Shown here: positions 1 through 10,676 of the stretch, one piece after another | Position numbering within the stretch: the stretch's first letter is position 1 | Layout: each line of letters opens with the position of its first letter | Assembly: GCA_048882385.1 (NCBI GenBank) | Contig: JBHLRQ010000105.1 | Location: 1 to 10,676, forward strand | Reading direction: 5' to 3' | From: Candidatus Thorarchaeota archaeon | Lineage (GTDB): Archaea > Asgardarchaeota > Thorarchaeia > Thorarchaeales > Thorarchaeaceae | DNA length: 10,676 nt | Program-made: the position numbers and the translations under genes | Notes under the pieces: generated by a model | What the model was told of the DNA's origin: nothing | The model's database searches: none | Seen by the model: the letters and a program-made list of their open reading frames with translations, nothing else

Positions 1-461
1 CCCCATGATGGAATTAATCCAATTCCAACCTCTACTGCTCCAAGCTTTGCCTCAGTATCACAGATTCGGATATCAGAAGCGAGAGCAAGTTCGAAACCAC
101 CGCCAAGACAAAGTCCATTAACGGCGGCTATTACTGGCTTGGAGAGCTTTGCAACAGCATCGATAGCTTCGATACCTTGTTCTAAGAGAGGTCGGACTTC
201 ATCAGGTGTACTCAGGAGTGCCTGAGCTTCCTTAAGGTCTGCACCAACACCAAACACCTTTTCATGGGTCGATGCAATAACAACTGACCTGACTTCTGGA
301 TCATTCTCGGCCTCTTGTAGAGCTGCAACAAGCTCCTCTAAAATAGTGGCATTGAAAGCATTCATTGCATCAATGCGATTCATCTTGATTACTGCAACAT
401 TCTTTGCAGGAGAAAGAAACGAACCTTCTTTTGAGTAAAGTATTGTCTCGTATTCTGGCAT
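1..461 (-). CDS. Enoyl-CoA hydratase/isomerase (crotonase family), 3' end truncated by the window edge
   Basis: Not in the ORF track. Manual translation from ATG at 461: [78 protein letters not shown]...[47 protein letters not shown]. Crotonase motifs GADLKE and GGGxELAL plus the second catalytic Glu (AVE) are present. SD-like AAGGTG upstream. Confidence 0.95.
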   Translation of the reverse strand, partial: [153 protein letters not shown]

Positions 462-510
462 TTGTATACACCTTATCAGAGGTTATGCAATTTTCGTGGG
501 GTTGACTGGC

Positions 511-517
511 TTATAAA
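511..517 (-). promoter_or_regulatory. Putative TATA box (TTTATAA) for the enoyl-CoA hydratase gene
   Basis: TTTATAA on the minus strand about 50 nt upstream of the ATG at 461 and downstream of the terminator-like hairpin. Confidence 0.45.
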
Positions 518-550
518 TCCCATTTATCACAGAATTCAAACTTCAATATT

Positions 551-585
551 AAAACAAGAAAATGGCAGGGATTGAAACCCTGCCA
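551..585 (-). terminator. Stem-loop plus T-tract, intrinsic terminator-like
   Basis: Minus strand reads TGGCAGGG-TTTCAAT-CCCTGCCA-TTTTCTTGTTTT: a perfect 8-bp stem (563-570/578-585) starting 7 nt after the dehydrogenase stop codon. Confidence 0.7.
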
Positions 586-592
586 GATTATA

Positions 593-1720
593 TTATTTCA
601 GATACTTTGGTACTGAATAACAATCCCCTAATTCATCATTGAGTTTCTTGATGAAATCGCGAACTTTGTCGACACCAAACTGATTGAGCATCTCAAATGG
701 ACCCATAGGCCAACTTGCACCCAGCTTCATTGCCATGTTGATGTCTTCTTCGCTGGCGATGCCTTCATCCACGAGAATCATTGCTTCACGTATACCTGGT
801 ATATTAAGTCGTTCGACAATCCATTCATGATCTGCACCTTTAGGAGGTTCGGGCTTATCTTCCTCACCGCCATAGGAATAGAATCCCTTCTTGGATTTCA
901 TACCGATATGTCCAGCATCAACCAGATTCTTGAGGACCTCAGGTGGTTTGAAGCAGTCTCCAATCTCTCTGTAGAGCGTAGACATTGCATTAAATGTAAT
1001 GTCAAGACCAACAAAATCACCTAATGTGAAAGGACCTGCTGGAGCTTTACCAACACTGGTCATTGCTAAATCGATCTCTTCTTTCGTAGCTTCTTTGCGT
1101 TCAAGCATTAGAAGTGCTTCACGCATAACTGGCATAAGAAGACGATTGACAATAAAACCAGGACTATTCTTTGCTCTCACAGTTGTCTTGCCTTGAGTTT
1201 TACCCACAGATTCAGCTGTCGCAATTGTTTCATCACTTGTTTTTTCACCAATGACCAGCTCTAGCAGTTTCATAGCTGGCACAGGTGAGAAATAGTGCAT
1301 ACCAATGAATTTGTCAGGTCGTTTTGTAGTGCTAGCCAGTTCATCGATACTTAGTGATGAAGTGTTTGTCGCTAGAATAGTATGTGCGGGTGCGGCAGCA
1401 TCTATCATAGCAAAGACCTCTTTTTTGACTTCCATATTCTCAAAGATAGCTTCAATGACTAAATCAGCGTCTTTGACAGCCTCCTCGGTATTAACGGTGG
1501 CATTTAGCCTGCCCATTAATCCCTCAGCCTCAGACATGGAGATTTTTCCCTTGTCTATGCCAGTCATGACATCTGAACGAATGCGTTCCATGCCTGCGTC
1601 AACAAACTCCTGTTTGATGTCCACCATAGACACATCAAACCCGTTCCATGCTGAAACATAGGCAATACCTGCGCCCATAAGCCCAGCGCCTATGACTGCA
1701 ATCTTTTTGACCATTAGCAT
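593..1720 (-). CDS. 3-hydroxyacyl-CoA (3-hydroxybutyryl-CoA) dehydrogenase with duplicated C-terminal dimerisation domain
   Basis: Rossmann motif IAVIGAGLMGAGIA; ADLVIEAIFE; ATNTSSL; catalytic His/Glu segment GMHYFSPVPAMKLLE; PGFIVNR. A second 3HCDH-like repeat reads WIVERL...EAMILVDEGIASEEDINMAMKLGASWPMGPF. SD GGAGGT before the ATG. Confidence 0.95.
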   Translation of the reverse strand: MLMVKKIAVIGAGLMGAGIAYVSAWNGFDVSMVDIKQEFVDAGMERIRSDVMTGIDKGKISMSEAEGLMGRLNATVNTEEAVKDADLVIEAIFENMEVKKEVFAMIDAAAPAHTILATNTSSLSIDELASTTKRPDKFIGMHYFSPVPAMKLLELVIGEKTSDETIATAESVGKTQGKTTVRAKNSPGFIVNRLLMPVMREALLMLERKEATKEEIDLAMTSVGKAPAGPFTLGDFVGLDITFNAMSTLYREIGDCFKPPEVLKNLVDAGHIGMKSKKGFYSYGGEEDKPEPPKGADHEWIVERLNIPGIREAMILVDEGIASEEDINMAMKLGASWPMGPFEMLNQFGVDKVRDFIKKLNDELGDCYSVPKYLK

Positions 1721-1726
1721 GACCTC

Positions 1727-2086
1727 CTACATTGCACCCATCATTACAGCAAGGATTAGGTTGGCAAGAGGATCACTCTCATGAGCATTACCAATCACCT
1801 GGAGACTACCATCATTCATTGTGTCCTTGAATGGCACCTCACCAGTGAAAATACCCAGCAATGTTTCTGCATTTGATTTGTAGATAACATCAGGACTCGG
1901 ATATACACCTTCGAGCAAATCGATTCCGTCCTTTGTAACAACCATGTACTGTGAACCTTCCTCAGTATGAACCTGAAGGATCTTGCCATGATATGGACCG
2001 ACCCAATCTGCTAGTTGCTTCTTGAGATCATCCTTTGAGTTACATTGCGCTTGAAGGAATTTGAAAAATTCTTGTAGTTGTGACAT
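1727..2086 (-). CDS. SCP2 (sterol carrier protein 2)-like lipid/acyl-CoA-binding protein
   Basis: YMVVTKDGIDLLEGVYPSPDVIYKSNAETLLGIFTGEVPFKDTMNDGSLQVIGN fits the SCP2 pattern (PDxxI...xxxxxG...GxLxVxG). Start moved from 2116 to ATG 2086 (MSQLQEFF), 4 nt after the upstream stop codon, which removes the overlap. Confidence 0.8.
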   Translation of the reverse strand: MSQLQEFFKFLQAQCNSKDDLKKQLADWVGPYHGKILQVHTEEGSQYMVVTKDGIDLLEGVYPSPDVIYKSNAETLLGIFTGEVPFKDTMNDGSLQVIGNAHESDPLANLILAVMMGAM

Positions 2087-2090
2087 CCTT

Positions 2091-2618
2091 TTAGTCCTCC
2101 TTTGCCATCCACTCATCTACAGCCTCATGCATTGCTGCATCAATTGTAGTTGCCCAGAAATTGCCCTTCCTGCTCTTCACCTTGTCCAGAAACGCATCAT
2201 ACTTGTCGCCTTCCATCAAGACAACAATTCTGCCTTTTCTATCATTGATGAAGGATTGGTGAATCATTTTCTTTGTATTCCAGTACTCGTGTTCAATATC
2301 ACCTTCCTTCAAACGCGGATAGAAAGGCCATGCACCTGTTGGATGAGGGCGATAAGACTTTCCTCCAGATTTCCACTTCTTCACCTTGTCTCCTGGAGCT
2401 TCCTTGAAACCAGGTCGGAAAGGCCACTGCGGAACATAGCGGAATCCTTTCTCACCATCAACAACTCCACCAGACCAGCGCCCAGTGTAGACACGTCCAC
2501 CTTTATTGTCACAGAATTGCTCCATTACAACTTCGATGAATCCTTCAGGAGTGAGACCAGCTTCTTCAGCCAACTTCTTCATGTTCTCAAAGGTTTCTCC
2601 TTCAAAATTGACTTCCAT
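2091..2618 (-). CDS. Hypothetical protein with N- and C-terminal RHH-like segments and two WPFxP repeats
   Basis: 175-aa ORF coupled to the nitroreductase (TGA-A-ATG, with SD GGAGGG inside the upstream gene end). Domain interpretation is by eye. Confidence 0.8.
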   Translation of the reverse strand: MEVNFEGETFENMKKLAEEAGLTPEGFIEVVMEQFCDNKGGRVYTGRWSGGVVDGEKGFRYVPQWPFRPGFKEAPGDKVKKWKSGGKSYRPHPTGAWPFYPRLKEGDIEHEYWNTKKMIHQSFINDRKGRIVVLMEGDKYDAFLDKVKSRKGNFWATTIDAAMHEAVDEWMAKED

Positions 2619-2619
2619 T

Positions 2620-3381
2620 TCACTTACCCTCCTTCCTAAATGCTAGTCTTTTGTATGGTTTGCCCCAACGCTCTTCGTACATGAGTCCTTCAAGAGGAGC
2701 CCTACTAGGACCAAGTGCTCTAGGAGATACTCGTTGGCCAATACAAAAAGCCGTTAGTGGTTCCCAGATTGGCGGGATTCCGAGTCTATCTCTGATGAGT
2801 TCTGCGTGTCGAGGATCTGAACAGACAAGAGCTTCGTATCCACATCCATATCCAAGTTCAGTAGCAGTGAGCCACATATTTTGCACTGCCATTCCGCACA
2901 CAACAGAACCGAATAGGGAGTTTGGATATAGGTATCCTGCGTCATGCCATGCTTCACTCGCACAGACAATAATCACAGTGTCACTCTTTTCTGGGTATCT
3001 GAACAATTCACCATCTCTAAGTCTAGCGTAGACAGCAGCTCTGTAAGGATCACTGATAAACCAGTTTCGTCCACTTGTTAATTCAAAGGGAGCTCCTCCA
3101 AAGGCTGTTTGAGCCATTTCCTGCGCAATATCTGCAAGGAAAACTTTGGTGTCTTTGTCATCTCGAATAACAACAAATCGCATCATCAACATATTCTCAG
3201 GACTCGGTGCATGTCGCGCCGCTTCCAATATCAGCTCGATGTCTTCATCGGGGATTTTCTCGCCAGTAAATTCTCGGATAGAGCGTCGCTCTCGAATCCA
3301 TTTGAGTGATTCAAGTTCTTTAGCAACTTTTACTTCATCCTCAGCTTTACCAGCAGCTTTACTCTCTGCATCTGCAGCCAT
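2620..3381 (-). CDS. Nitroreductase-family FMN-binding oxidoreductase
   Basis: IRERRSIREF, ILEAARHAPSPEN, RFVVI, GMAVQNMWLTATELGYG and IRDRLGIP are standard nitroreductase-fold motifs. SD GAGGTG upstream. Confidence 0.93.
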   Translation of the reverse strand: MAADAESKAAGKAEDEVKVAKELESLKWIRERRSIREFTGEKIPDEDIELILEAARHAPSPENMLMMRFVVIRDDKDTKVFLADIAQEMAQTAFGGAPFELTSGRNWFISDPYRAAVYARLRDGELFRYPEKSDTVIIVCASEAWHDAGYLYPNSLFGSVVCGMAVQNMWLTATELGYGCGYEALVCSDPRHAELIRDRLGIPPIWEPLTAFCIGQRVSPRALGPSRAPLEGLMYEERWGKPYKRLAFRKEGK

Positions 3382-3390
3382 TTATACACC

Positions 3391-3405
3391 TCAACATATT
3401 GTTGA
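3391..3405. promoter_or_regulatory. Inverted repeat TCAACA-TAT-TGTTGA, candidate operator of the nitroreductase operon
   Basis: Perfect 6-bp arms abutting the SD, between a TATA-like TTTATG (minus strand, 3431-3436) and the ATG at 3381. Confidence 0.35.
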
Positions 3406-3600
3406 ACGGCAACCGATAACTTACAGCCAGCATAAATGTATTGCGAGAAGTCGTCTATTGCCGAAGAATGATTCATAATTGTTCGATTTTGGAATTCAAT
3501 ACAGACCCATAACATACCCGGACCAGTTCTCTATCATACTCTAGGTAATGACCTAGTATTGGCTACACTATACAAGCTGACTTATGATACTCATTATATT

Positions 3601-3780
3601 GTTCTACAGACACACAAAGCTCCTCCCGGCGTTTGTGTGTCCATCTCTTTTATTACTAGGGAGCTCTCATGCTCCCCACCCAAATAGAATCTACAGACCT
3701 GGACTTCTCAAATCCAAGGACTCACACACAATCTTCTCAAGCGTTCGGTTTTGAATATCGACCGAGTATTACACACAATC
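3601..3780 (+). other. Structured, repeat-rich non-coding region (candidate 5' leader RNA or sRNA)
   Basis: 10-bp stem GACACACAAA/TTTGTGTGTC (3609-3618/3632-3641); stem GGGAGC/GCTCCC (3659-3664/3671-3676); stem TCGGT/ACCGA (3745-3749/3761-3765); ACACACAA three times; CTACAGAC twice. Confidence 0.4.
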
Positions 3781-3821
3781 ATATTGACGTATGACACCGA
3801 GAATACTATGGTGATTTCCAG

Positions 3822-3962
3822 ATGAAGCTTGTAACCCTACATATTCCGGAAACGTATGTTGATGGACTTGAGAAGCTTGTTGAGAGCAATCTTTACCCCA
3901 ACAGATCAGAAGCAATCCGGATTGCAATTAGAGACCTTTTGAAGAGAGAACTGTGGGGCTAG
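3822..3962 (+). CDS. Ribbon-helix-helix (CopG/Arc/MetJ) transcription regulator, CdrS-like, 46 aa
   Basis: Below the ORF-track length cutoff. MKLVTLHIPETYVDGLEKLVESNLYPNRSEAIRIAIRDLLKRELWG*, with the xPNRSEAIR motif seen in archaeal CdrS-type RHH proteins. SD GGTGAT at 3811-3816. Confidence 0.92.
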   Translation: MKLVTLHIPETYVDGLEKLVESNLYPNRSEAIRIAIRDLLKRELWG

Positions 3963-4107
3963 TAAAAGCTACGAGTCCCACAGACTCGATTTATCCCTAC
4001 CATCCGAGATTCATTCAAATGTGAACATCAATTGTGAGGCGATACCATCTTGGCCCCAAATAGGGGAAGTTGGCCACGAAAGAAATATTGATATCTACTC
4101 TTATTGA

Positions 4108-4117
4108 TTAATATATA
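4108..4117 (+). promoter_or_regulatory. Putative TATA box (TTAATATATA) for the tandem paralog pair
   Basis: AT-rich TATA-like element about 30 nt upstream of GTG 4149. Confidence 0.5.
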
Positions 4118-4148
4118 ATAAGAGGTGTAATCTCAAGAGGCCTCATCT

Positions 4149-5120
4149 GTGAATCTCGACTCAGCTAGACTCATTGAATCCAAAGATGAAGAAACCCATA
4201 TTGTAAGAGGGTGTCCATGTTACAAAGAGTTTGGATCAACAGAAAAAGTCTGTCTCAATTGCGATGATGTTCTGCCAATTCGAGCTATATCTGTAGACCC
4301 TAGTTTTTTCAGTTCACTAGATTCAAGGTCCAATCTGAAAGAGTTTGCAAGTGATAATGAAACAATGTGCTATCTCGTGATTTTCCTTGACAGAGTGGAA
4401 GGATTTTGTTATTGTGTGAGTCAGAATCAGAGAATTCGTATCAACAACCAAGATGTCAAGGTTTCTGAAATAGATAGTGCACTTCAGTTTGTAACGTCAA
4501 CGGAAAAGGACAGAGATGGAGTACTGTGTTCTGAATGCCTCTATAGATATCTAAGAACCTTGGGCGAGAGTTCAGAAGGATTTCTTTCTAATGAAGAGAG
4601 AAACGACATTATCGTTTCATATGTAAGAGATATTGCTGATAAAATCGCGAAACAGCTGAGCAGTTTTGAGGAAGGAGAAAATGATAATGCGCTTGAATTT
4701 AGAGAGCATCTAAAAGATTACATAAGAGAGTTGAATAGAAACCGTTCTCACTGGACATCAATGATTCGTGGTTTGAAAAAGGAAAATGCGGATGAAGATC
4801 TGATACAGTTAGTCGAGTTGTATCGAACACTTTCTCGTCTGGAATCAATCTTTATGTTTCAAGTTCAATCACTAGATAATGAATCAGAAGAGTCAGATCC
4901 TCTGAGCGTTCTCCAGTTTATGGTCAGCATCTCTGAAAAGGTCATGAGAATTAACGATGAAATTCGAGATTTAACAAACTACATGGTAGAGAGGGATAGT
5001 CTTCCCGAGAACATTCAGGAAATGCTCATGCAACATACTGAGAAAAGAAAGAAGACTGAGTATAGATTTAGCAATTTGGTTTCAGTGTTGCAAGAAATTG
5101 ATTCACATACATCAAAATAA
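4149..5120 (+). CDS. Hypothetical Cys-rich protein (paralog A): putative metal-binding N-domain plus helical C-domain
   Basis: 323-aa ORF with GTG start; RGCPCYK...C...CY...YC...CSECLY; aligns by eye over its full length with 5168..6172. Confidence 0.88.
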   Translation: MNLDSARLIESKDEETHIVRGCPCYKEFGSTEKVCLNCDDVLPIRAISVDPSFFSSLDSRSNLKEFASDNETMCYLVIFLDRVEGFCYCVSQNQRIRINNQDVKVSEIDSALQFVTSTEKDRDGVLCSECLYRYLRTLGESSEGFLSNEERNDIIVSYVRDIADKIAKQLSSFEEGENDNALEFREHLKDYIRELNRNRSHWTSMIRGLKKENADEDLIQLVELYRTLSRLESIFMFQVQSLDNESEESDPLSVLQFMVSISEKVMRINDEIRDLTNYMVERDSLPENIQEMLMQHTEKRKKTEYRFSNLVSVLQEIDSHTSK

Positions 5121-5167
5121 CTTCTAAATGGTCACCAGTTCTAGGCAGTGAGTGACAGAAAGACAGT

Positions 5168-6172
5168 ATGATTGCAAATAGGTCTGAGTTGGAGAAAAAA
5201 AACGTGTTTGGAAGTCACAAACAGGAGCAAGAAGGGACAATCAAGTTGATTCGAGGTTGTCCATGCTACAAGGTATTTGGTGACGAAAAACTATGTGTGA
5301 ATAATGATAGTGTCCTAGAGATAGATGCTATCGAAATTGATCCCTCAATATTTTCATTTCATTACGATAAGGAGAGTATGGGAGAAGAAAGAGCTACGGA
5401 TGGAAATGTATGCTATGCTTCTATTTTCATCAATTATCCAGATAACAAGGTCTATTGTATTTCACAAGGTTGGGTATTGAGAATACATGGAAAAGACGTT
5501 CCTGGAAACGACCTTGAAGATGCAATGCAATTCCTATCAACAAAAGAAATCTCTAGTAGTGCAGAAATTTGTTCAGAGTGTTTATACAAATTTATTCTGA
5601 CATTAGGTGATACTTTTGCTGACCTCTTGACTGAAAAAGAGAAGACAGAGGAGGTCAAGAGATACGTGGATAAATTCTCACTTATGATTGCAGTCAAACA
5701 CAGCCAAACCGACCAGATGATGAAACCAATTGGCACAGAGGATGATATTGAGGAGGGTATTGACCATTTCCAATTTCTTCGTAACTACTTGGTTCAATTA
5801 TTGGAGCAGCAAAATTACTGGGCTCGACTTGGTGAAGAACTAGAGGAGGAAGAAGCAGATCCTTGGATTCAAGATCTAGTCCATATGAGAGAACGACTTG
5901 ATAGGCTAGAGTTTCAATTCTATAGTCAGACTTTGCAGCTTAGGGATATTAACGAATTTAACCTATTGATCAAAATGCTTCAATATGTCTTAAGATCGTC
6001 AGATGATATCCTTGTTCTAAACAATGAAATCCACTCCAAAATAAGATCAGACAAATTCAAAGAATTTGCTGGTACTGATGAGCGATTCAAGATTCTTGGA
6101 GAGTATGCAGAAAAGAGCAGAACTGTTGAACATAATTTTGGAAATATCCTTCAGATTCTGACAAAGCTCTAG
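5168..6172 (+). CDS. Hypothetical Cys-rich protein (paralog B): putative metal-binding N-domain plus helical C-domain
   Basis: 334-aa ORF 47 nt after paralog A with the same RGCPCYK and CSECLY motifs. Exact start uncertain. Confidence 0.9.
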   Translation: MIANRSELEKKNVFGSHKQEQEGTIKLIRGCPCYKVFGDEKLCVNNDSVLEIDAIEIDPSIFSFHYDKESMGEERATDGNVCYASIFINYPDNKVYCISQGWVLRIHGKDVPGNDLEDAMQFLSTKEISSSAEICSECLYKFILTLGDTFADLLTEKEKTEEVKRYVDKFSLMIAVKHSQTDQMMKPIGTEDDIEEGIDHFQFLRNYLVQLLEQQNYWARLGEELEEEEADPWIQDLVHMRERLDRLEFQFYSQTLQLRDINEFNLLIKMLQYVLRSSDDILVLNNEIHSKIRSDKFKEFAGTDERFKILGEYAEKSRTVEHNFGNILQILTKL

Positions 6173-6753
6173 ACTGAAAATCTTGAATCTGAGAGAATTG
6201 TATCTATTAATTTCTCAGCTGATACTTCATCTTTCTTGTTCCATTCCTCTGCAAATTCTCTAAACACGAATAACGCCTCTAAGACTGTATCAGCGAGTTT
6301 GATGAGCTCAGATTCAAGCACTTTGGGTCCGCTTCCAAGACCAGGACAGATATGCTTCATCGCGCTTAGGCCCCATTTTCTCTGGTCTTCTTCATCTTGA
6401 AAGACAAAAGGAAAAGACATACAGACAACTGGTCTAATTGCATGAATCATGCACAGATTTTCTTTCAGGAATATGCAATCACCGTTCTCCATTTTCTTAA
6501 GAGCAATATATGCGGGACCTTTTTCTGTACTCAAAGCAGGAAAGTCACGTAGTCCATCTAGTGAGTTGATACCATCGGATATATAGAAATCCAAGGCTCG
6601 AATTAGTTCATTTGTATTCAATCCAAGAGCCATAGATATACGGGTTAGGTCTCGACCTGTCAATGTCACTAAAATAGATTCTTCTCTACAACATGCCCCA
6701 CATTTAGTGCATTCGAAATTTACTTGTGCATCGAGAGAATTCAACAAGTTCAC
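6169..6753 (-). CDS. YkgJ-family CxxCxxCC cysteine-cluster (Zn/Fe-chelating) protein
   Basis: FECTKCGACC...GDCIFLKENLCMIHAIRPVVCMSFPF...CPGLG is the complete family pattern. Start is probably GTG 6753 or TTG 6747/6744 (after GGTGA) rather than 6792, just behind the aminotransferase stop. Confidence 0.9.
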   Translation of the reverse strand: MNLLNSLDAQVNFECTKCGACCREESILVTLTGRDLTRISMALGLNTNELIRALDFYISDGINSLDGLRDFPALSTEKGPAYIALKKMENGDCIFLKENLCMIHAIRPVVCMSFPFVFQDEEDQRKWGLSAMKHICPGLGSGPKVLESELIKLADTVLEALFVFREFAEEWNKKDEVSAEKLIDTILSDSRFSV

Positions 6754-6754
6754 C

Positions 6755-7921
6755 TTAGTATAAGGTCTGTATGAATTCGGACAAAGCTGCAATACCTTCC
6801 TGAATATCAGTCAAACTTGCGGCATATGAAAATCGAAGATGATTGTCGTAGTATTTCCCAAAAACTATACCAGGAGTGGAACATACTCCAATCTTCTGGA
6901 GGATTAATTCCGCGAGGGTATTACTGCTCAACCCTACCGCTGAGAAATCAGGAAATACGTAGAATGCACCTTTAGGATTTACACAGTTCACACCGGGTAT
7001 CTTGTTTAATAATTCTGATATCACGTTGCGTCTTTCTTGGTAATCCGTAATCATTCTATCTATTGAACTCTGGTCACCAGAAAGAGCTTCGACCCCTGCG
7101 TATTGAACAAACGATGTCGCGCAAGAAGTTGTATTTTGCTGAATAAGCACCATGTTGTTAATTGTCTCTTTATTACCAACCGCAAACCCGAGACGCCAAC
7201 CTGTCATCGCGTAAGTTTTTGACAGCCCATTGATAACCAATGTTCGTTCTAGACTTTTGTCTACGTCAAGCATAGAGGCATGTTGAAAACCATCATAGAC
7301 AAGAGCTTCATAGATTTCATCTGAAAATATCACAAAGTCACGATCCTCGGCCAAATCAAAGATGAATTTCAGTTGGTCTCGAGACAGAATTCCACCGGTG
7401 GGATTGTTTGGTGTATTGATAATCAATGCTGTAACAGACCTTGAAGCTGCGTTCTTGAGCGCTTCTTCATCAAGTACGTAATCATCTGATGTGTTAACAT
7501 CAACTGGTTTAGCTCCCGCAGTTCTAACCATAACTCGATATGTTGGCCATCCTGGAGCAAGTAAGAGAACATCATCTCCAGCATCAAGAGTACTAAGAAA
7601 TCCTTGAAACAAAGCCATCTTCGCCCCAGGAGTAACAACCACATTCTTTCCGCCATCAATCTCAATACCACGTCGACTATAGAATTCCTCAATCGCTTCC
7701 AATAGAGAGGGTATTCCTCGAGAAGAAGTATATCTAGTATATCCTTTCTTCAGAGCTTCAATTCCAGCATTAACAATGTTGTCAGGAGTTGGGAAATCTG
7801 GCTGACCCACTTCAAAATGAAAAATACGTCTACCTTCAGCTTCCAATCTATTAGCTAACTCAAACATCTTGAGCGTACCAGAGGGCGGAATTCGTTCCAT
7901 GGTATGAGAAGTCCAATCCAT
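6755..7921 (-). CDS. aspC: PLP-dependent class I/II aminotransferase (aspartate aminotransferase-like)
   Basis: GQPDFPTP, YTSSRGIPSL, VVVTPGAK, INTPNNPTG, SDEIYE, PLP-Lys motif NGLSKTYAMTGWRLG, PKGAFYVF, LRFSYA. Start placed at ATG 7921 behind SD AGGTG (the track uses GTG 7930). Substrate specificity is assumed from the family. Confidence 0.93.
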   Translation of the reverse strand: MDWTSHTMERIPPSGTLKMFELANRLEAEGRRIFHFEVGQPDFPTPDNIVNAGIEALKKGYTRYTSSRGIPSLLEAIEEFYSRRGIEIDGGKNVVVTPGAKMALFQGFLSTLDAGDDVLLLAPGWPTYRVMVRTAGAKPVDVNTSDDYVLDEEALKNAASRSVTALIINTPNNPTGGILSRDQLKFIFDLAEDRDFVIFSDEIYEALVYDGFQHASMLDVDKSLERTLVINGLSKTYAMTGWRLGFAVGNKETINNMVLIQQNTTSCATSFVQYAGVEALSGDQSSIDRMITDYQERRNVISELLNKIPGVNCVNPKGAFYVFPDFSAVGLSSNTLAELILQKIGVCSTPGIVFGKYYDNHLRFSYAASLTDIQEGIAALSEFIQTLY

Positions 7922-8024
7922 GTGAAACACCTTGATATGACCAATGCGTGCAATCTATGACTGCAGTAGGATTCAAAGCAGATTCAAAAGGTATGATAAA
8001 GTCTTTCGTGACGCATATTTTACA

Positions 8025-8849
8025 TTAGAATCGGCAGAGCCGTTCAAGCTCGTCTATCTGATGTTGGGTGCCATTGACTCGAATAAGATCAGGCAGAATC
8101 TCCCCATAGCCTAGTTTGTGTGCAGCTTTGAGATAAGAGATTTTCAGAGGGTCGTAGCCTAACAGGCTAGCACAATAGGCATCCACTGCAACTGGATCAG
8201 TTCCAACAACAACTCCACCAACATGTCTTACTCGATTCTCCATCCTAGCACCAATGACCAGTTGAGTAATGTCAATTATAGATAGATGAGGTCTGTAGAT
8301 TGAAAGAATATCAATAAGGACGTCATCAATTGATTTGTGATAGACACTTTTGTCAACTTCAGGAAGAAGCCCAAGCAAATTCTTGATCCCAGCTCCGACT
8401 GTACATATCTCAGGCTCCTCTTTCAATGTTGCTGCATTAATCAGAAATCCTCCAAGACTAAGAATAGCAGGCATTCTGCGAGCCTTGAAGAAATTTCCAG
8501 GGAATGAAATATCAACCATATCCACGACGGAGAGATTGACTAACTCAACATTCTGTCCTTTCAGTTTGTCATAACCGCTATGAGAAAAAGCATCAACAGC
8601 TGTTCGTATTGGAGTATCGCTCTCAACTATTTGTACTAGACCAAGCGACCCAAACATTCGTGCAATGGATTGAACAATATTCACATTAGTGTTTCCGGGT
8701 AATGATGGATCATAGATGGATGGTTTGATGATAAATCGCTCAGTGTTTTTTGGAGGGATTAATGGGGCAGATAGTTTAGAGAAAGCTGTTTTCAGAGCTT
8801 CTCCTGGGCTCCTTTTTACACCTACAGCAATCTCAGATGTGAAATCCAT
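8025..8849 (-). CDS. DUF362-domain protein (divergent)
   Basis: FIIKPS, IVESD, ELVNLS, INAATLK, GIKNLLG, LSIID and GTDPVAVDAYCASLLGYDP...YLKAAHKLGYG match the DUF362 layout. No ferredoxin domain is attached. Confidence 0.85.
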   Translation of the reverse strand: MDFTSEIAVGVKRSPGEALKTAFSKLSAPLIPPKNTERFIIKPSIYDPSLPGNTNVNIVQSIARMFGSLGLVQIVESDTPIRTAVDAFSHSGYDKLKGQNVELVNLSVVDMVDISFPGNFFKARRMPAILSLGGFLINAATLKEEPEICTVGAGIKNLLGLLPEVDKSVYHKSIDDVLIDILSIYRPHLSIIDITQLVIGARMENRVRHVGGVVVGTDPVAVDAYCASLLGYDPLKISYLKAAHKLGYGEILPDLIRVNGTQHQIDELERLCRF

Positions 8850-8874
8850 GATGACTTAGTACAAAGGTCCAAGG

Positions 8875-8881
8875 CTTTAAG
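8875..8881. promoter_or_regulatory. Candidate shared bidirectional TATA element (CTTTAAG/CTTAAAG)
   Basis: Near-palindromic element about 26 nt from the DUF362 ATG (8849) and about 28 nt from the ThiF ATG (8909). Confidence 0.45.
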
Positions 8882-8908
8882 TGAGCCCCTGTGTTCATGT
8901 ATAGCGAG

Positions 8909-9931
8909 ATGAAACTAACAGACGAACAACGTGATCGATATTCGAGAATGCTTGCTCTCCGAGATTTTTCAGAAGAAGAAATGGAAATAGTCATGAATAC
9001 AACAATTGCACAGATCGGTGCTGGAGGCCTAGGAAGTCCTTCACTTCGTCTTCTTACCGCTTTAGGTTTCGGTAGAATCAGAATCATTGATCGCGACATC
9101 GTAGAACTCTCAAATATCCAAAGGCAGACCGTATTCAATACCGAAGATATAGGTATGCCAAAAGCTGAAGCGGCAGCGGCAAATCTAGGTTTGATGAATC
9201 CAGAGGTCAACTTCGATCCCATCTGTGTTTCAATCTCAAATGAGAATGCGATTGATGTGTTGAAAGGTGCAGACATCATTGTCGATGGATTAGATTCGTT
9301 TGCGGCTCGAAGAGCAGTTAATAGAGCTAGTCAAGCATTAGAAATCCCATACGTATTTGCAGGAGCCGTAGAATATTATGCAAATCTGACAACGTTTATT
9401 CCAGGTAAGACAGGTTGTTTGCAGTGTGTTATGGGAAATGCTCAAGATAATCCCGAGAATACATGTGCACGTGTCGGAGTGTCACCAACTCTACTCTCTC
9501 TTGCAGCCTCTGCACAAGTAAATGAGGTTCTACAACTTGCGCTTGATAGGGAAGCTGCATTAGCTAACCGGTTAATGACCATTGATACTAGTTCTCTTAG
9601 CTTTGATTTCTTTGACATTGGAAAGGCTACTGATTGCAAAGTTTGTTCAGAACCTGTCAAGTATTCTCCGAGTGGAGCTAATGAATTAAGAGTCACTCAG
9701 CTTTGTTCTCAAAGCTTCAACATTGCACCAGAGAAATTGATGAGTCTCAACTTGGAAACCCTTGCAGACAAACTTGAATCAAGTTATACTGTAAAAAGAA
9801 TGAAACGATTCCTAGTCATAGAGACACCAACTGAGATAAAGATCACAATCATGCCAGCTGGCAACCTCGTAGTAAAGGGAGTATCCACTGCTGAAGAGGC
9901 CACTAAGCTCTTCCATGACATTATTGACTAG
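8909..9931 (+). CDS. moeB: MoeB/ThiF/HesA-family E1-like adenylyltransferase with C-terminal TBP-like extension
   Basis: RYSR, IGAGGLG, DRDIVELSNIQRQ, GMPKAEAA, DIIVDGLD, Zn-binding pairs CLQC and CKVC, catalytic-position Cys in NTCARVGV. Start could be 8891, 8897 or 8909. The symbol denotes the family; the pathway is not established. Confidence 0.92.
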   Translation: MKLTDEQRDRYSRMLALRDFSEEEMEIVMNTTIAQIGAGGLGSPSLRLLTALGFGRIRIIDRDIVELSNIQRQTVFNTEDIGMPKAEAAAANLGLMNPEVNFDPICVSISNENAIDVLKGADIIVDGLDSFAARRAVNRASQALEIPYVFAGAVEYYANLTTFIPGKTGCLQCVMGNAQDNPENTCARVGVSPTLLSLAASAQVNEVLQLALDREAALANRLMTIDTSSLSFDFFDIGKATDCKVCSEPVKYSPSGANELRVTQLCSQSFNIAPEKLMSLNLETLADKLESSYTVKRMKRFLVIETPTEIKITIMPAGNLVVKGVSTAEEATKLFHDIID

Positions 9932-9935
9932 CTTG

Positions 9936-10676
9936 CTAGTCACCAAAGAATAGTCGACGTGCACGTCTTCGCCTCTCCTCTTCGTCTTCGTCACTCTCAG
10001 GTGGTGGGGGCGGTGGAGGAGGTTCAGTTATAGGTTCAGGTGAATCAGTTTCTCCCAATTCATCTAAATCTGCAGGCGGTGGTACATCATCATAATATGA
10101 ATCGTCTAACTCATCAGTTGGTAGTGCTGGTTCTTCTGAAGGAGTGAGAACAGTAGGAGACCCAAGAGAAATAGGTTCATCAAACGGCACTCTTTCTTCT
10201 TCAGTTAGTTTTGATATGGTTTCAGATTCATCTTCTTCTTCAGCTTCAATTTCGCCCTCAAATTCATCGGTGACAGGTATATCTTTTACAGGAGTAACAG
10301 CTTTCTCGTAATCTGCCCATGTGAATGAAGGTTTTGTCTCCGATTCTTCTTCAGTCGGAGGAACTTCCTCAACATCAGCAGACGAAGGTTCTACAACGAG
10401 CGGAGAAGGCTCAACGAGCTCAAAGTCAGATGTGAACTCCCGAGGTGGACTGTCAAGTGAGAGGTCATCCATCTCTTGTTCATCTGAGCGACCAACTGAT
10501 TCTATTGTAAGATCATCTTCAGATTCTTCTAGGACAACCTCTTCAATAGGAGGTGGAGCTGCTTCATATCCGGATGGAACAGGTTTGTCTGCAGCAGCAT
10601 CTTCATCCTCAACGAAGGTCAATCCAAGATCGTCTTTCAGACAAGATTCACAACGTTTTGCTGCAGCAATGAGGCC
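9936..10676 (-). CDS. Hypothetical protein (5' partial) with a long acidic Pro-rich disordered tail, Pro8 tract and basic/hydrophobic C-terminus
   Basis: The frame is open beyond the track start at 10622 to the window edge (GLIAAAKRCESCLKDDLGLTFVEDED...). It ends EPPPPPPPPESDEDEEERRRRARRLFFGD*. Confidence 0.85.
   Translation of the reverse strand, partial: GLIAAAKRCESCLKDDLGLTFVEDEDAAADKPVPSGYEAAPPPIEEVVLEESEDDLTIESVGRSDEQEMDDLSLDSPPREFTSDFELVEPSPLVVEPSSADVEEVPPTEEESETKPSFTWADYEKAVTPVKDIPVTDEFEGEIEAEEEDESETISKLTEEERVPFDEPISLGSPTVLTPSEEPALPTDELDDSYYDDVPPPADLDELGETDSPEPITEPPPPPPPPESDEDEEERRRRARRLFFGD

Follow-up and report, generated by a model that had tools for sequence, protein, structure and literature searches.

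The window analysed here is a stretch of 10,676 nucleotides from a Candidatus Thorarchaeota archaeon (GenBank assembly GCA_048882385.1, contig JBHLRQ010000105.1, positions 1 to 10,676 of the forward strand). It contains two adjacent, co-oriented genes, here called A and B, with B starting 47 bp after A, and each encodes an N-terminal domain with conserved cysteines followed by a helical half. The pair belongs to a genuine domain family which is under strong conservation and still uncharacterised; no relative of it is known, and a link to Arf-type GTPases is credible. The genes and their domains were located as follows:

4149..5120, + strand: gene A, 323 residues, GTG start, the faster-evolving paralog
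4191..4583, + strand: six-Cys domain of A (residues 15-145), with conserved C22, (C24), C35, C74, C89, C127 and C130
4584..5117, + strand: C-domain of A, Cys-free, acidic and helical (five long helices predicted)
5168..6172, + strand: gene B, 334 residues, ATG start, the more conserved paralog
5237..5626, + strand: six-Cys domain of B (residues 24-153), with C31, C33, C43, C82, C97, C135 and C138, placed by the alignments
5627..6169, + strand: Cys-free acidic helical C-domain of B, aligning with that of A, isoelectric point (pI) 4.92

An earlier note on this DNA, made from the letters and their open reading frames (ORFs), had proposed that A and B are homologous from end to end, and this was borne out. 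BLASTP aligned residues 18-317 of A with residues 27-334 of B, from the RGCPCYK motif through the last helix, with 94/313 identities (30%), 56% positives and an E value of 6e-47, a similarity far beyond chance. The shared blocks that had been listed (RGCPCYK.FG, EK.C.N.D.VL.I.AI..DPS.FS, CY..IF, YC.SQ, A.QF, CSECLY and the C-terminal E..F.N....L) are all present in this alignment, the cysteine positions given for both proteins are those listed above, and both C-halves are Cys-free as described. The label of seven-cysteine paralogs fits B, all seven cysteines of which align with cysteines of A, but not A itself, which has nine; the two extra residues, C38 and C87, are A-specific and not conserved. 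Homologs at E<=0.001 numbered 224 for B and 166 for A, so both genes are regarded as real, and the named homologs lie nearly all in Thorarchaeota or 'Promethearchaeota' bins.

Conservation within the domain was followed in an alignment of 58 sequences, comprising the window's two N-domains, stand-alone copies, full-length proteins and fusions to Arf-type GTPases, with a mean column identity of 19%. In A numbering, C74, C89, C127 and C130 are conserved in 58/58 sequences each, C35 in 55/55 and C22 in 52/53, and the non-cysteine residues N37 and Y132 are each conserved in 57/58. As C24, the second cysteine of the CPC motif, is found in only 46 of the 53 sequences covering its position, the conserved core of the domain is six cysteines, not seven. 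The alignment holds six to seven invariant cysteines and no conserved histidine, with the spacing C-P-C, about 10, C, about 38, C, 14, C, about 37, C-x-x-C. It is the near-invariance of the six cysteines that points to metal binding (Zn or Fe-S), and we infer a metal-stabilised domain with zinc as the most likely metal.

An AlphaFold2 model of residues 15-145 of A, built on the domain alignment, was confident (predicted local distance difference test, pLDDT, 89.4; predicted template modelling score, pTM, 0.83). It comprises three short strands, two short helices, a beta-hairpin and two long helices, with the CxxC pair at the N-terminus of the last helix. No structural neighbour of this model was found by Foldseek in the PDB (best E 0.35) or in BFVD (best E 0.37). 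Sequence searches gave a similar picture: nothing scored above cut-off for A or B in Pfam or NCBIfam, 20 family members scanned singly against Pfam had no convincing match, and the family profile found nothing below E 0.13 among PDB sequences. In the ESM Atlas the top feature scores did not rise above noise: the N-domain of A scored 0.82 with small zinc-ribbon-like clusters, and the family member P0282 scored 0.82 with the TIMP family. A role in anti-phage defence was also considered and rejected on the lack of PADLOC matches for A, B and the small regulator gene upstream of them; at E<=0.01 no PADLOC family was found for these three proteins, for a third paralog or for a stand-alone domain elsewhere in the genome.

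A search of 1.84 billion representative proteins with the family profile returned 62 matches at E<=0.001, and the named ones among these were Thorarchaeota, Heimdallarchaeota or 'Asgard group'; two cluster labels naming other phyla are taken as mis-binned contigs. The A/B family is therefore confined to Asgard archaea, within which its distribution is strongly patchy, the profile matching in 139/400 genomes. Matches were found in the Asgard families f1 (79/85), f8 (27/31), f13 (12/12), f15 (5/5), f16 (6/6) and f30 (5/5), with none in f22 (0/135), f11 (0/22), f14 (0/19), f21 (0/14) or f10 (0/12). A search of the published literature, outside which lay the asCOG tables and bioRxiv supplements, found no description of the six-Cys domain, and the available parts of the text of PMC11914678 and PMC10933270, both of which deal with Asgard GTPases, make no mention of it. 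The view of the earlier note that the cysteines form a lineage-specific domain with a spacing unlike standard motifs thus agrees with the searches: the domain occurs in Asgard archaea only, has no Pfam, NCBIfam, PDB-sequence or fold match, and fits none of the usual radical-SAM, ferredoxin or Rieske motifs. The outcomes set beforehand as contradicting that note did not arise, as there is no match to a characterised family, the cysteines are conserved and the paralogs are linked.

The C-terminal halves, for which a helical bundle had been suggested, are indeed predicted as five long helices. Both proteins, and both halves of each, are strongly acidic (pI 4.6-4.9, net charges of -21 and -23), and no hydrophobic segment of the membrane-spanning type is present in A or B; these properties speak against insertion into membranes and against direct binding of nucleic acids. 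The full-length model reached a pLDDT of only 72.5 and the matches listed for it were generic helical bundles, with no specific cytoskeletal fold for the helical half among them. Prediction of an A+B complex gave ipSAE interface scores of 0.01 and 0.00, the mark being 0.32, in runs without controls, and speaks neither for nor against binding.

Related loci were gathered from species-representative genomes (n=68). They were arranged as follows:

A then B on the same strand: 58/68 loci, most of the spacers being 10-140 bp long and two ORF calls overlapping
B then a B-like gene: 3 loci (L048 and L054, B with a divergent copy; L072, a split gene)
A only: 2 loci (L020, L034)
B only: 2 loci (L060, L063)
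Cut by contig ends: 2 loci (L067, L073)
Stand-alone domain: 1 locus (L074)

B seems to have been lost or relocated in the Thorarchaeota bins of L020 and L034. Of the single-gene loci, two come from fragmentary bins or from close to a contig end. A quick maximum-likelihood tree, supported by Shimodaira-Hasegawa-like approximate likelihood ratio tests (SH-aLRT) only, places the B orthologs in one clade (SH-aLRT 95) and the A orthologs in a separate group (SH-aLRT 85), apart from a fast-evolving clade of genes in the A position. The separation of the two types places the duplication before the divergence of the sampled Thorarchaeota. It is in line with the proposal of an old duplication with both copies retained, as is their side-by-side position in 58 of the 68 loci. 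The two copies have not been held equally, A changing at roughly twice the rate of B: identity to the ortholog in locus L008 is 65% for A and 82% for B, the end branches of the quick tree are 0.34 and 0.12, and mean column identity is 56% over 34 A orthologs versus 75% over 30 B orthologs, sets which are not identically sampled.

The genome from which the window derives carries four members of the family, namely A, B, a full-length copy on contig C45 and a 152-residue stand-alone domain on contig C113. The C45 copy is a third paralog and falls within the wider B-type clade (SH-aLRT 98). The stand-alone gene (6994..7452 of locus L006, on C113) is followed by genes for a calcineurin-like phosphoesterase (7516..8592) and an SMC/Rad50-like ATPase (8592..9878). 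The ATPase, of 428 residues, has mad3 (E 4e-33) and LmuB as its best PADLOC matches. The stand-alone copy of L074 also adjoins a metallophosphoesterase gene; the phosphoesterases of the two loci did not form a cluster in BLAST. A possible Arf remnant upstream of the C113 domain, suggested by a genome-search match that reached into the Arf part with two stops, was rejected, as tblastn found no real similarity there.

The clearest pointer to a function came from members of the family with other architectures. In Heimdall-type Asgard archaea there is a conserved Arf-family protein of approximately 336 residues, the C-terminal half of which is the Cys domain. One of these, P0297, matches Arf (PF00025) at E 1.2e-43, and the same Pfam family was found in 49/49 clusters matching the P0297 domain. 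Genome G082 encodes two Arf fusions together with a copy of the domain behind a multi-pass hydrophobic region of about 225 residues (P0312, a membrane fusion) and a copy with a shorter helical tail (L075). In genome G117 the Cys domain is followed by a weak thioredoxin-like domain (P0313; E 3e-4, below the curated cut-off) with a single cysteine at the active-site position; the family was matched in all six f16 genomes, the fusion being inspected in G117 alone. In G115 (L077), a stand-alone domain follows a gene for a protein with a thioredoxin (CAFC motif) and two V4R domains. In G015, of family f8, the single stand-alone gene (1486..1887 of locus L078, contig C1) lies 68 bp after a gene on the same strand (2..1417) for a 471-residue helical protein with weak apolipoprotein-like repeats; this pair may correspond to the layout of domain plus helical bundle, split in two and with the order reversed. 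The Cys domain is thus a portable module, the commonest covalent partner of which is an Arf-type switch. Taken together, the lack of a recognisable relative, the restriction to one phylum, the strong constraint and the repeated fusion to Arf make it a candidate GTPase partner.

Comparison with known Arf- and trafficking-related proteins gives partial likenesses. The eukaryotic ArfGAP zinc finger (PF01412) combines a CX2CX16CX2C motif with an arginine finger. Like it, the six-Cys domain is a Cys-containing unit of about 130 residues tied to Arf GTPases, a likeness of the 'works like' kind only, but it has a single CxxC, another spacing and no Pfam match to PF01412. Asgard Arfs (AArfs) are described in the available part of PMC11914678 as carrying additional domains, such as an N-terminal longin, and the Cys domain would resemble these as an extra, C-terminal half of Arf-family proteins. 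However, that part describes no C-terminal Cys-rich domain and contains neither 'zinc' nor 'cysteine', and A and B themselves have no GTPase domain. In a third comparison, the Asgard protein Thor-TRAPPC3 is a V4R protein of about 150 residues with a mixed alpha/beta fold and a structural Cys4 zinc site, according to the available part of PMC10933270. A V4R protein gene does lie beside the stand-alone six-Cys domain of L077; A and B, however, have no V4R (PF02830) match, and no TRAPPC3 or PoxR chain was among the fold matches listed.

A second lead lies directly upstream of the pair, where a small regulator gene and two elements of possible regulatory function were found:

3822..3962, + strand: ribbon-helix-helix (RHH, CopG-type) gene, 46 residues; Pfam RHH_1 (PF01402), E 1.3e-8, score 34.9 bits (cut-off 20.5)
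4079..4094, + strand: purine-rich then TATA-like element (AAAGAAATATTGATAT), a candidate archaeal B recognition element (BRE)/TATA promoter for A-B
4098..4124, + strand: inverted repeat CTCTTATT/AATAAGAG, 8-bp arms, 11-nt spacer, 100% complementary, directly after the TATA-like element

The RHH gene ends 187 bp before A, and a co-oriented RHH gene lies upstream of A in 59/68 loci, at a distance of 42-434 bp (1135 bp in one locus). The RHH family has members in 384/400 Asgard genomes and four copies in the genome of the window, with the common core YPNRSEAIR.AIRDLL..ELW. Of the other three copies, L094 (1429..1683 of that locus, on contig C52) is 64% identical to the window RHH and abuts an FtsZ gene (1683..2942; Tubulin PF00091, E 2.6e-46; FtsZ_C, E 4.2e-35), L093 is followed by genes for an FtsX-like permease and an ABC ATPase and has a Ras-family GTPase gene facing it, and L092 precedes a 193-residue gene of unknown family followed by triose-phosphate isomerase. 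An RHH gene followed by ftsZ is the cdrS-ftsZ2 arrangement, which the available part of PMC7439475 describes as widely conserved in archaea, CdrS regulating ftsZ2 and other division genes in haloarchaea. As the C52 paralog abuts ftsZ, the window RHH is counted as a paralog of a CdrS-like regulator and not as the ftsZ-linked copy; it is a small RHH_1 protein, as expected of that type of regulator, but does not stand directly upstream of ftsZ2. The locus resembles cdrS-ftsZ2 of Halobacteria and other archaea (PMC7439475, PMC8406309, as far as their available parts describe it) in having a very small, co-oriented RHH gene directly upstream of structural genes, and the paralog in the same genome adjoins ftsZ in the same way. 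It differs in that the genes behind the RHH encode two six-Cys/helical proteins and not tubulin homologs, and in that A is set apart from the RHH gene by a 187-bp spacer containing a promoter-like element of its own. No RHH match was found in 12 loci of family members outside Thorarchaeota.

Gene A probably has its own promoter, 55-70 nt upstream, and with such an element in place co-transcription with the RHH gene is not indicated. By a strict regular expression, a promoter-like motif was found 62-107 nt before the coding start of A in 36/64 loci with an RHH-A spacer. The inverted repeat at 4098..4124 could, weakly, be a candidate operator. Similar repeats were seen in close relatives and are inconsistent across the family.

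The Arf fusions and the CdrS-type RHH gene are the main functional leads, and they can be joined in one tentative reading. A and B would be soluble, very acidic, non-enzymatic proteins, each made of an Asgard-specific six-Cys module and a five-helix bundle. The module may serve Arf-type small GTPases as a docking or regulatory domain, being covalently fused to such a GTPase in Heimdall-type Asgard archaea, and in Thorarchaeota the helical bundles would join A and B into a hetero-oligomeric adaptor working with a GTPase in trans. The pair might be expressed from its own promoter beside, and possibly under the control of, an RHH protein of the type that regulates cell division genes elsewhere among the archaea. 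We regard this combination, of a metal-stabilised Cys module docking an Arf-like GTPase, helical association of A with B and expression linked to a CdrS-type regulator, as the best supported of the readings considered, though possible rather than probable. Paralogy, restriction to Asgard archaea, conservation of the six cysteines, the absence of a known fold or family, the tandem, the synteny and the fusions are observations, on which metal binding, partnership with a GTPase, association of A with B and RHH control are suggested. A bolder form, in which a new fold acts as an Asgard-specific Arf regulator or effector, in cis in Heimdall-type archaea and in trans through an A-B hetero-oligomer in Thorarchaeota, with expression tied to a CdrS-type division circuit, seems to us decidedly unlikely as a whole.

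Several observations weigh against the proposed GTPase adaptor and its regulation. The Arf-fused members are distant, with 20-21% identity to the N-domain of A; none of the four family members in the genome of the window is fused to Arf, and no small GTPase gene lies within the window. In L020 and L034, A is followed directly (2 bp) by the gene for a CxxCxxCC protein with no B between them, which means that A can persist without an adjacent B. The adjacency of the RHH gene may reflect inherited gene order and not function, as synteny in the region is general, with an aminotransferase gene in 56/68 loci and the CxxCxxCC gene in 58/68, and the RHH family is multi-copy and nearly universal (384/400 genomes) whereas the Cys family is patchy (139/400). 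An inverted repeat rarer than 5% of shuffles stood at this place after the TATA-like element in only 4/36 loci, so conservation of the repeat is not established.

The same cysteines could belong to a redox or Fe-S sensor, in which they would bind a cluster or form a thiol switch, with the helical bundle relaying the signal. The invariant cysteines without a conserved histidine fit this idea, as do the thioredoxin-like fusion P0313, the position of the G115 stand-alone domain beside the thioredoxin and V4R gene, and the putative Zn/Fe-chelating CxxCxxCC protein (PF03692) encoded downstream of B; the hosts are, moreover, anaerobic sediment archaea. Fe-S clusters are bound by motifs such as CX3CX2C (radical-SAM) and CX2CX2CX3C(P) (ferredoxin-type), however, and neither spacing occurs in A or B, which also lack Fer4 and Radical_SAM Pfam matches, while the Rieske motif fits no better. 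With the P0313 match weak and its domain left with one active-site cysteine, with two architectures in favour against 49 Arf-fusion clusters, and with the CxxCxxCC gene on the opposite strand as part of the general synteny, we consider a sensor unlikely. The RHH gene lends itself to another explanation, that A and B are structural or scaffold proteins of cell division, the cytoskeleton or cell shape under a dedicated CdrS-type regulator, with which a GTPase partner would be compatible. Its position upstream of A in 59 of the 68 loci, the ftsZ, FtsX-like permease/ABC ATPase and 193-residue genes behind the other copies, the role reported for CdrS in haloarchaea (PMC7439475, available part) and the frequency of long helical bundles in scaffolds can be cited for it. 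This evidence is one of association, though, and the apparent promoter of A, the 12 loci outside Thorarchaeota without an RHH match and the lack of a specific cytoskeletal match for the helical half leave a scaffold role doubtful.

Whether A and B act together at all is questioned by their unequal rates of evolution (65% versus 82% identity to L008, end branches of 0.34 versus 0.12), by loci with A (L020, L034) or B (L060, L063) alone and by the unlinked, B-derived paralog on C45. All of these would fit independent paralogs which have separate partners or conditions and are adjacent only because of a common promoter. The A-B order with short spacers in 58 of the 68 loci, across many genera, is an argument to the contrary; two of the single-gene loci are near contig ends or in fragmentary bins, and unequal rates are usual for obligate heteromers too. 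Independence appears improbable. Finally, the B ortholog P0106 bears the JGI name 'transcription initiation factor TFIIIB Brf1 subunit/TFIIB', and a protein of about 330 residues with an N-terminal Cys region followed by helices is superficially like TFB. A divergent TFIIB/Brf1-like or other zinc-finger nucleic-acid-binding factor is nevertheless extremely improbable. TFIIB and Brf1 have an N-terminal zinc ribbon and, after it, two cyclin-like repeats. The Pfam families TFIIB (PF00382) and TF_Zn_Ribbon and the cyclin families were matched by 0/20 members at E<=0.01, P0106 included, and on this ground identity with TFIIB was rejected; A and B had no TFIIB-type match at E<=0.1. The proteins and their domains are strongly acidic (pI 4.6-4.9), the N-domain has some 130 residues of mixed strands and helices against about 40 in a zinc ribbon, and no TFIIB chain was among the fold matches listed, the full-length model (pLDDT 72.5) finding generic helical bundles.

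The Arf-type GTPase fusions in other Asgard archaea make the A-B pair a good, still uncharacterised lead. Eukaryotes have no closer known relatives than the Asgard archaea, and the control of the many small GTPases in these archaea is still an open problem; the domain offers a concrete, clonable candidate partner for such GTPases and, once solved, a likely new fold. Were the Arf-regulator reading true, the machinery controlling Asgard Arf-like switches would have no kinship with the ArfGAPs and ArfGEFs of eukaryotes; if A and B were merely structural or redox proteins, they would still represent a new domain family, of narrower interest.

The neighbourhood of the pair is syntenic across Thorarchaeota, with genes for a nitroreductase, an SCP2 protein, the CxxCxxCC protein, an aminotransferase, a DUF362 protein and a ThiF protein. 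Three further genes of the window are relevant here:

6169..6792, - strand: CxxCxxCC protein, 207 residues; PF03692, putative Zn/Fe-chelating, E 2.5e-12
9936..10676, - strand: extremely acidic low-complexity ORF with E, D and P runs, PPPPPPPP and a basic RRRRARRLFFGD tail, running off the window end
2091..2618, - strand: ORF of 175 residues without a Pfam or NCBIfam family, between the nitroreductase and SCP2-like genes

The CxxCxxCC gene converges on B and its end overlaps the stop codon of B by 4 nt. In 23 loci (22 in the 68-locus set, with the counterpart in L072 counted as well), a gene for an NAD-dependent epimerase/dehydratase of about 318 residues lies between the pair and the CxxCxxCC gene. 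The acidic ORF has no Pfam match, and weak homologs of it were seen at the same position in 44 related loci. The 175-residue ORF is conserved in 45 related loci.

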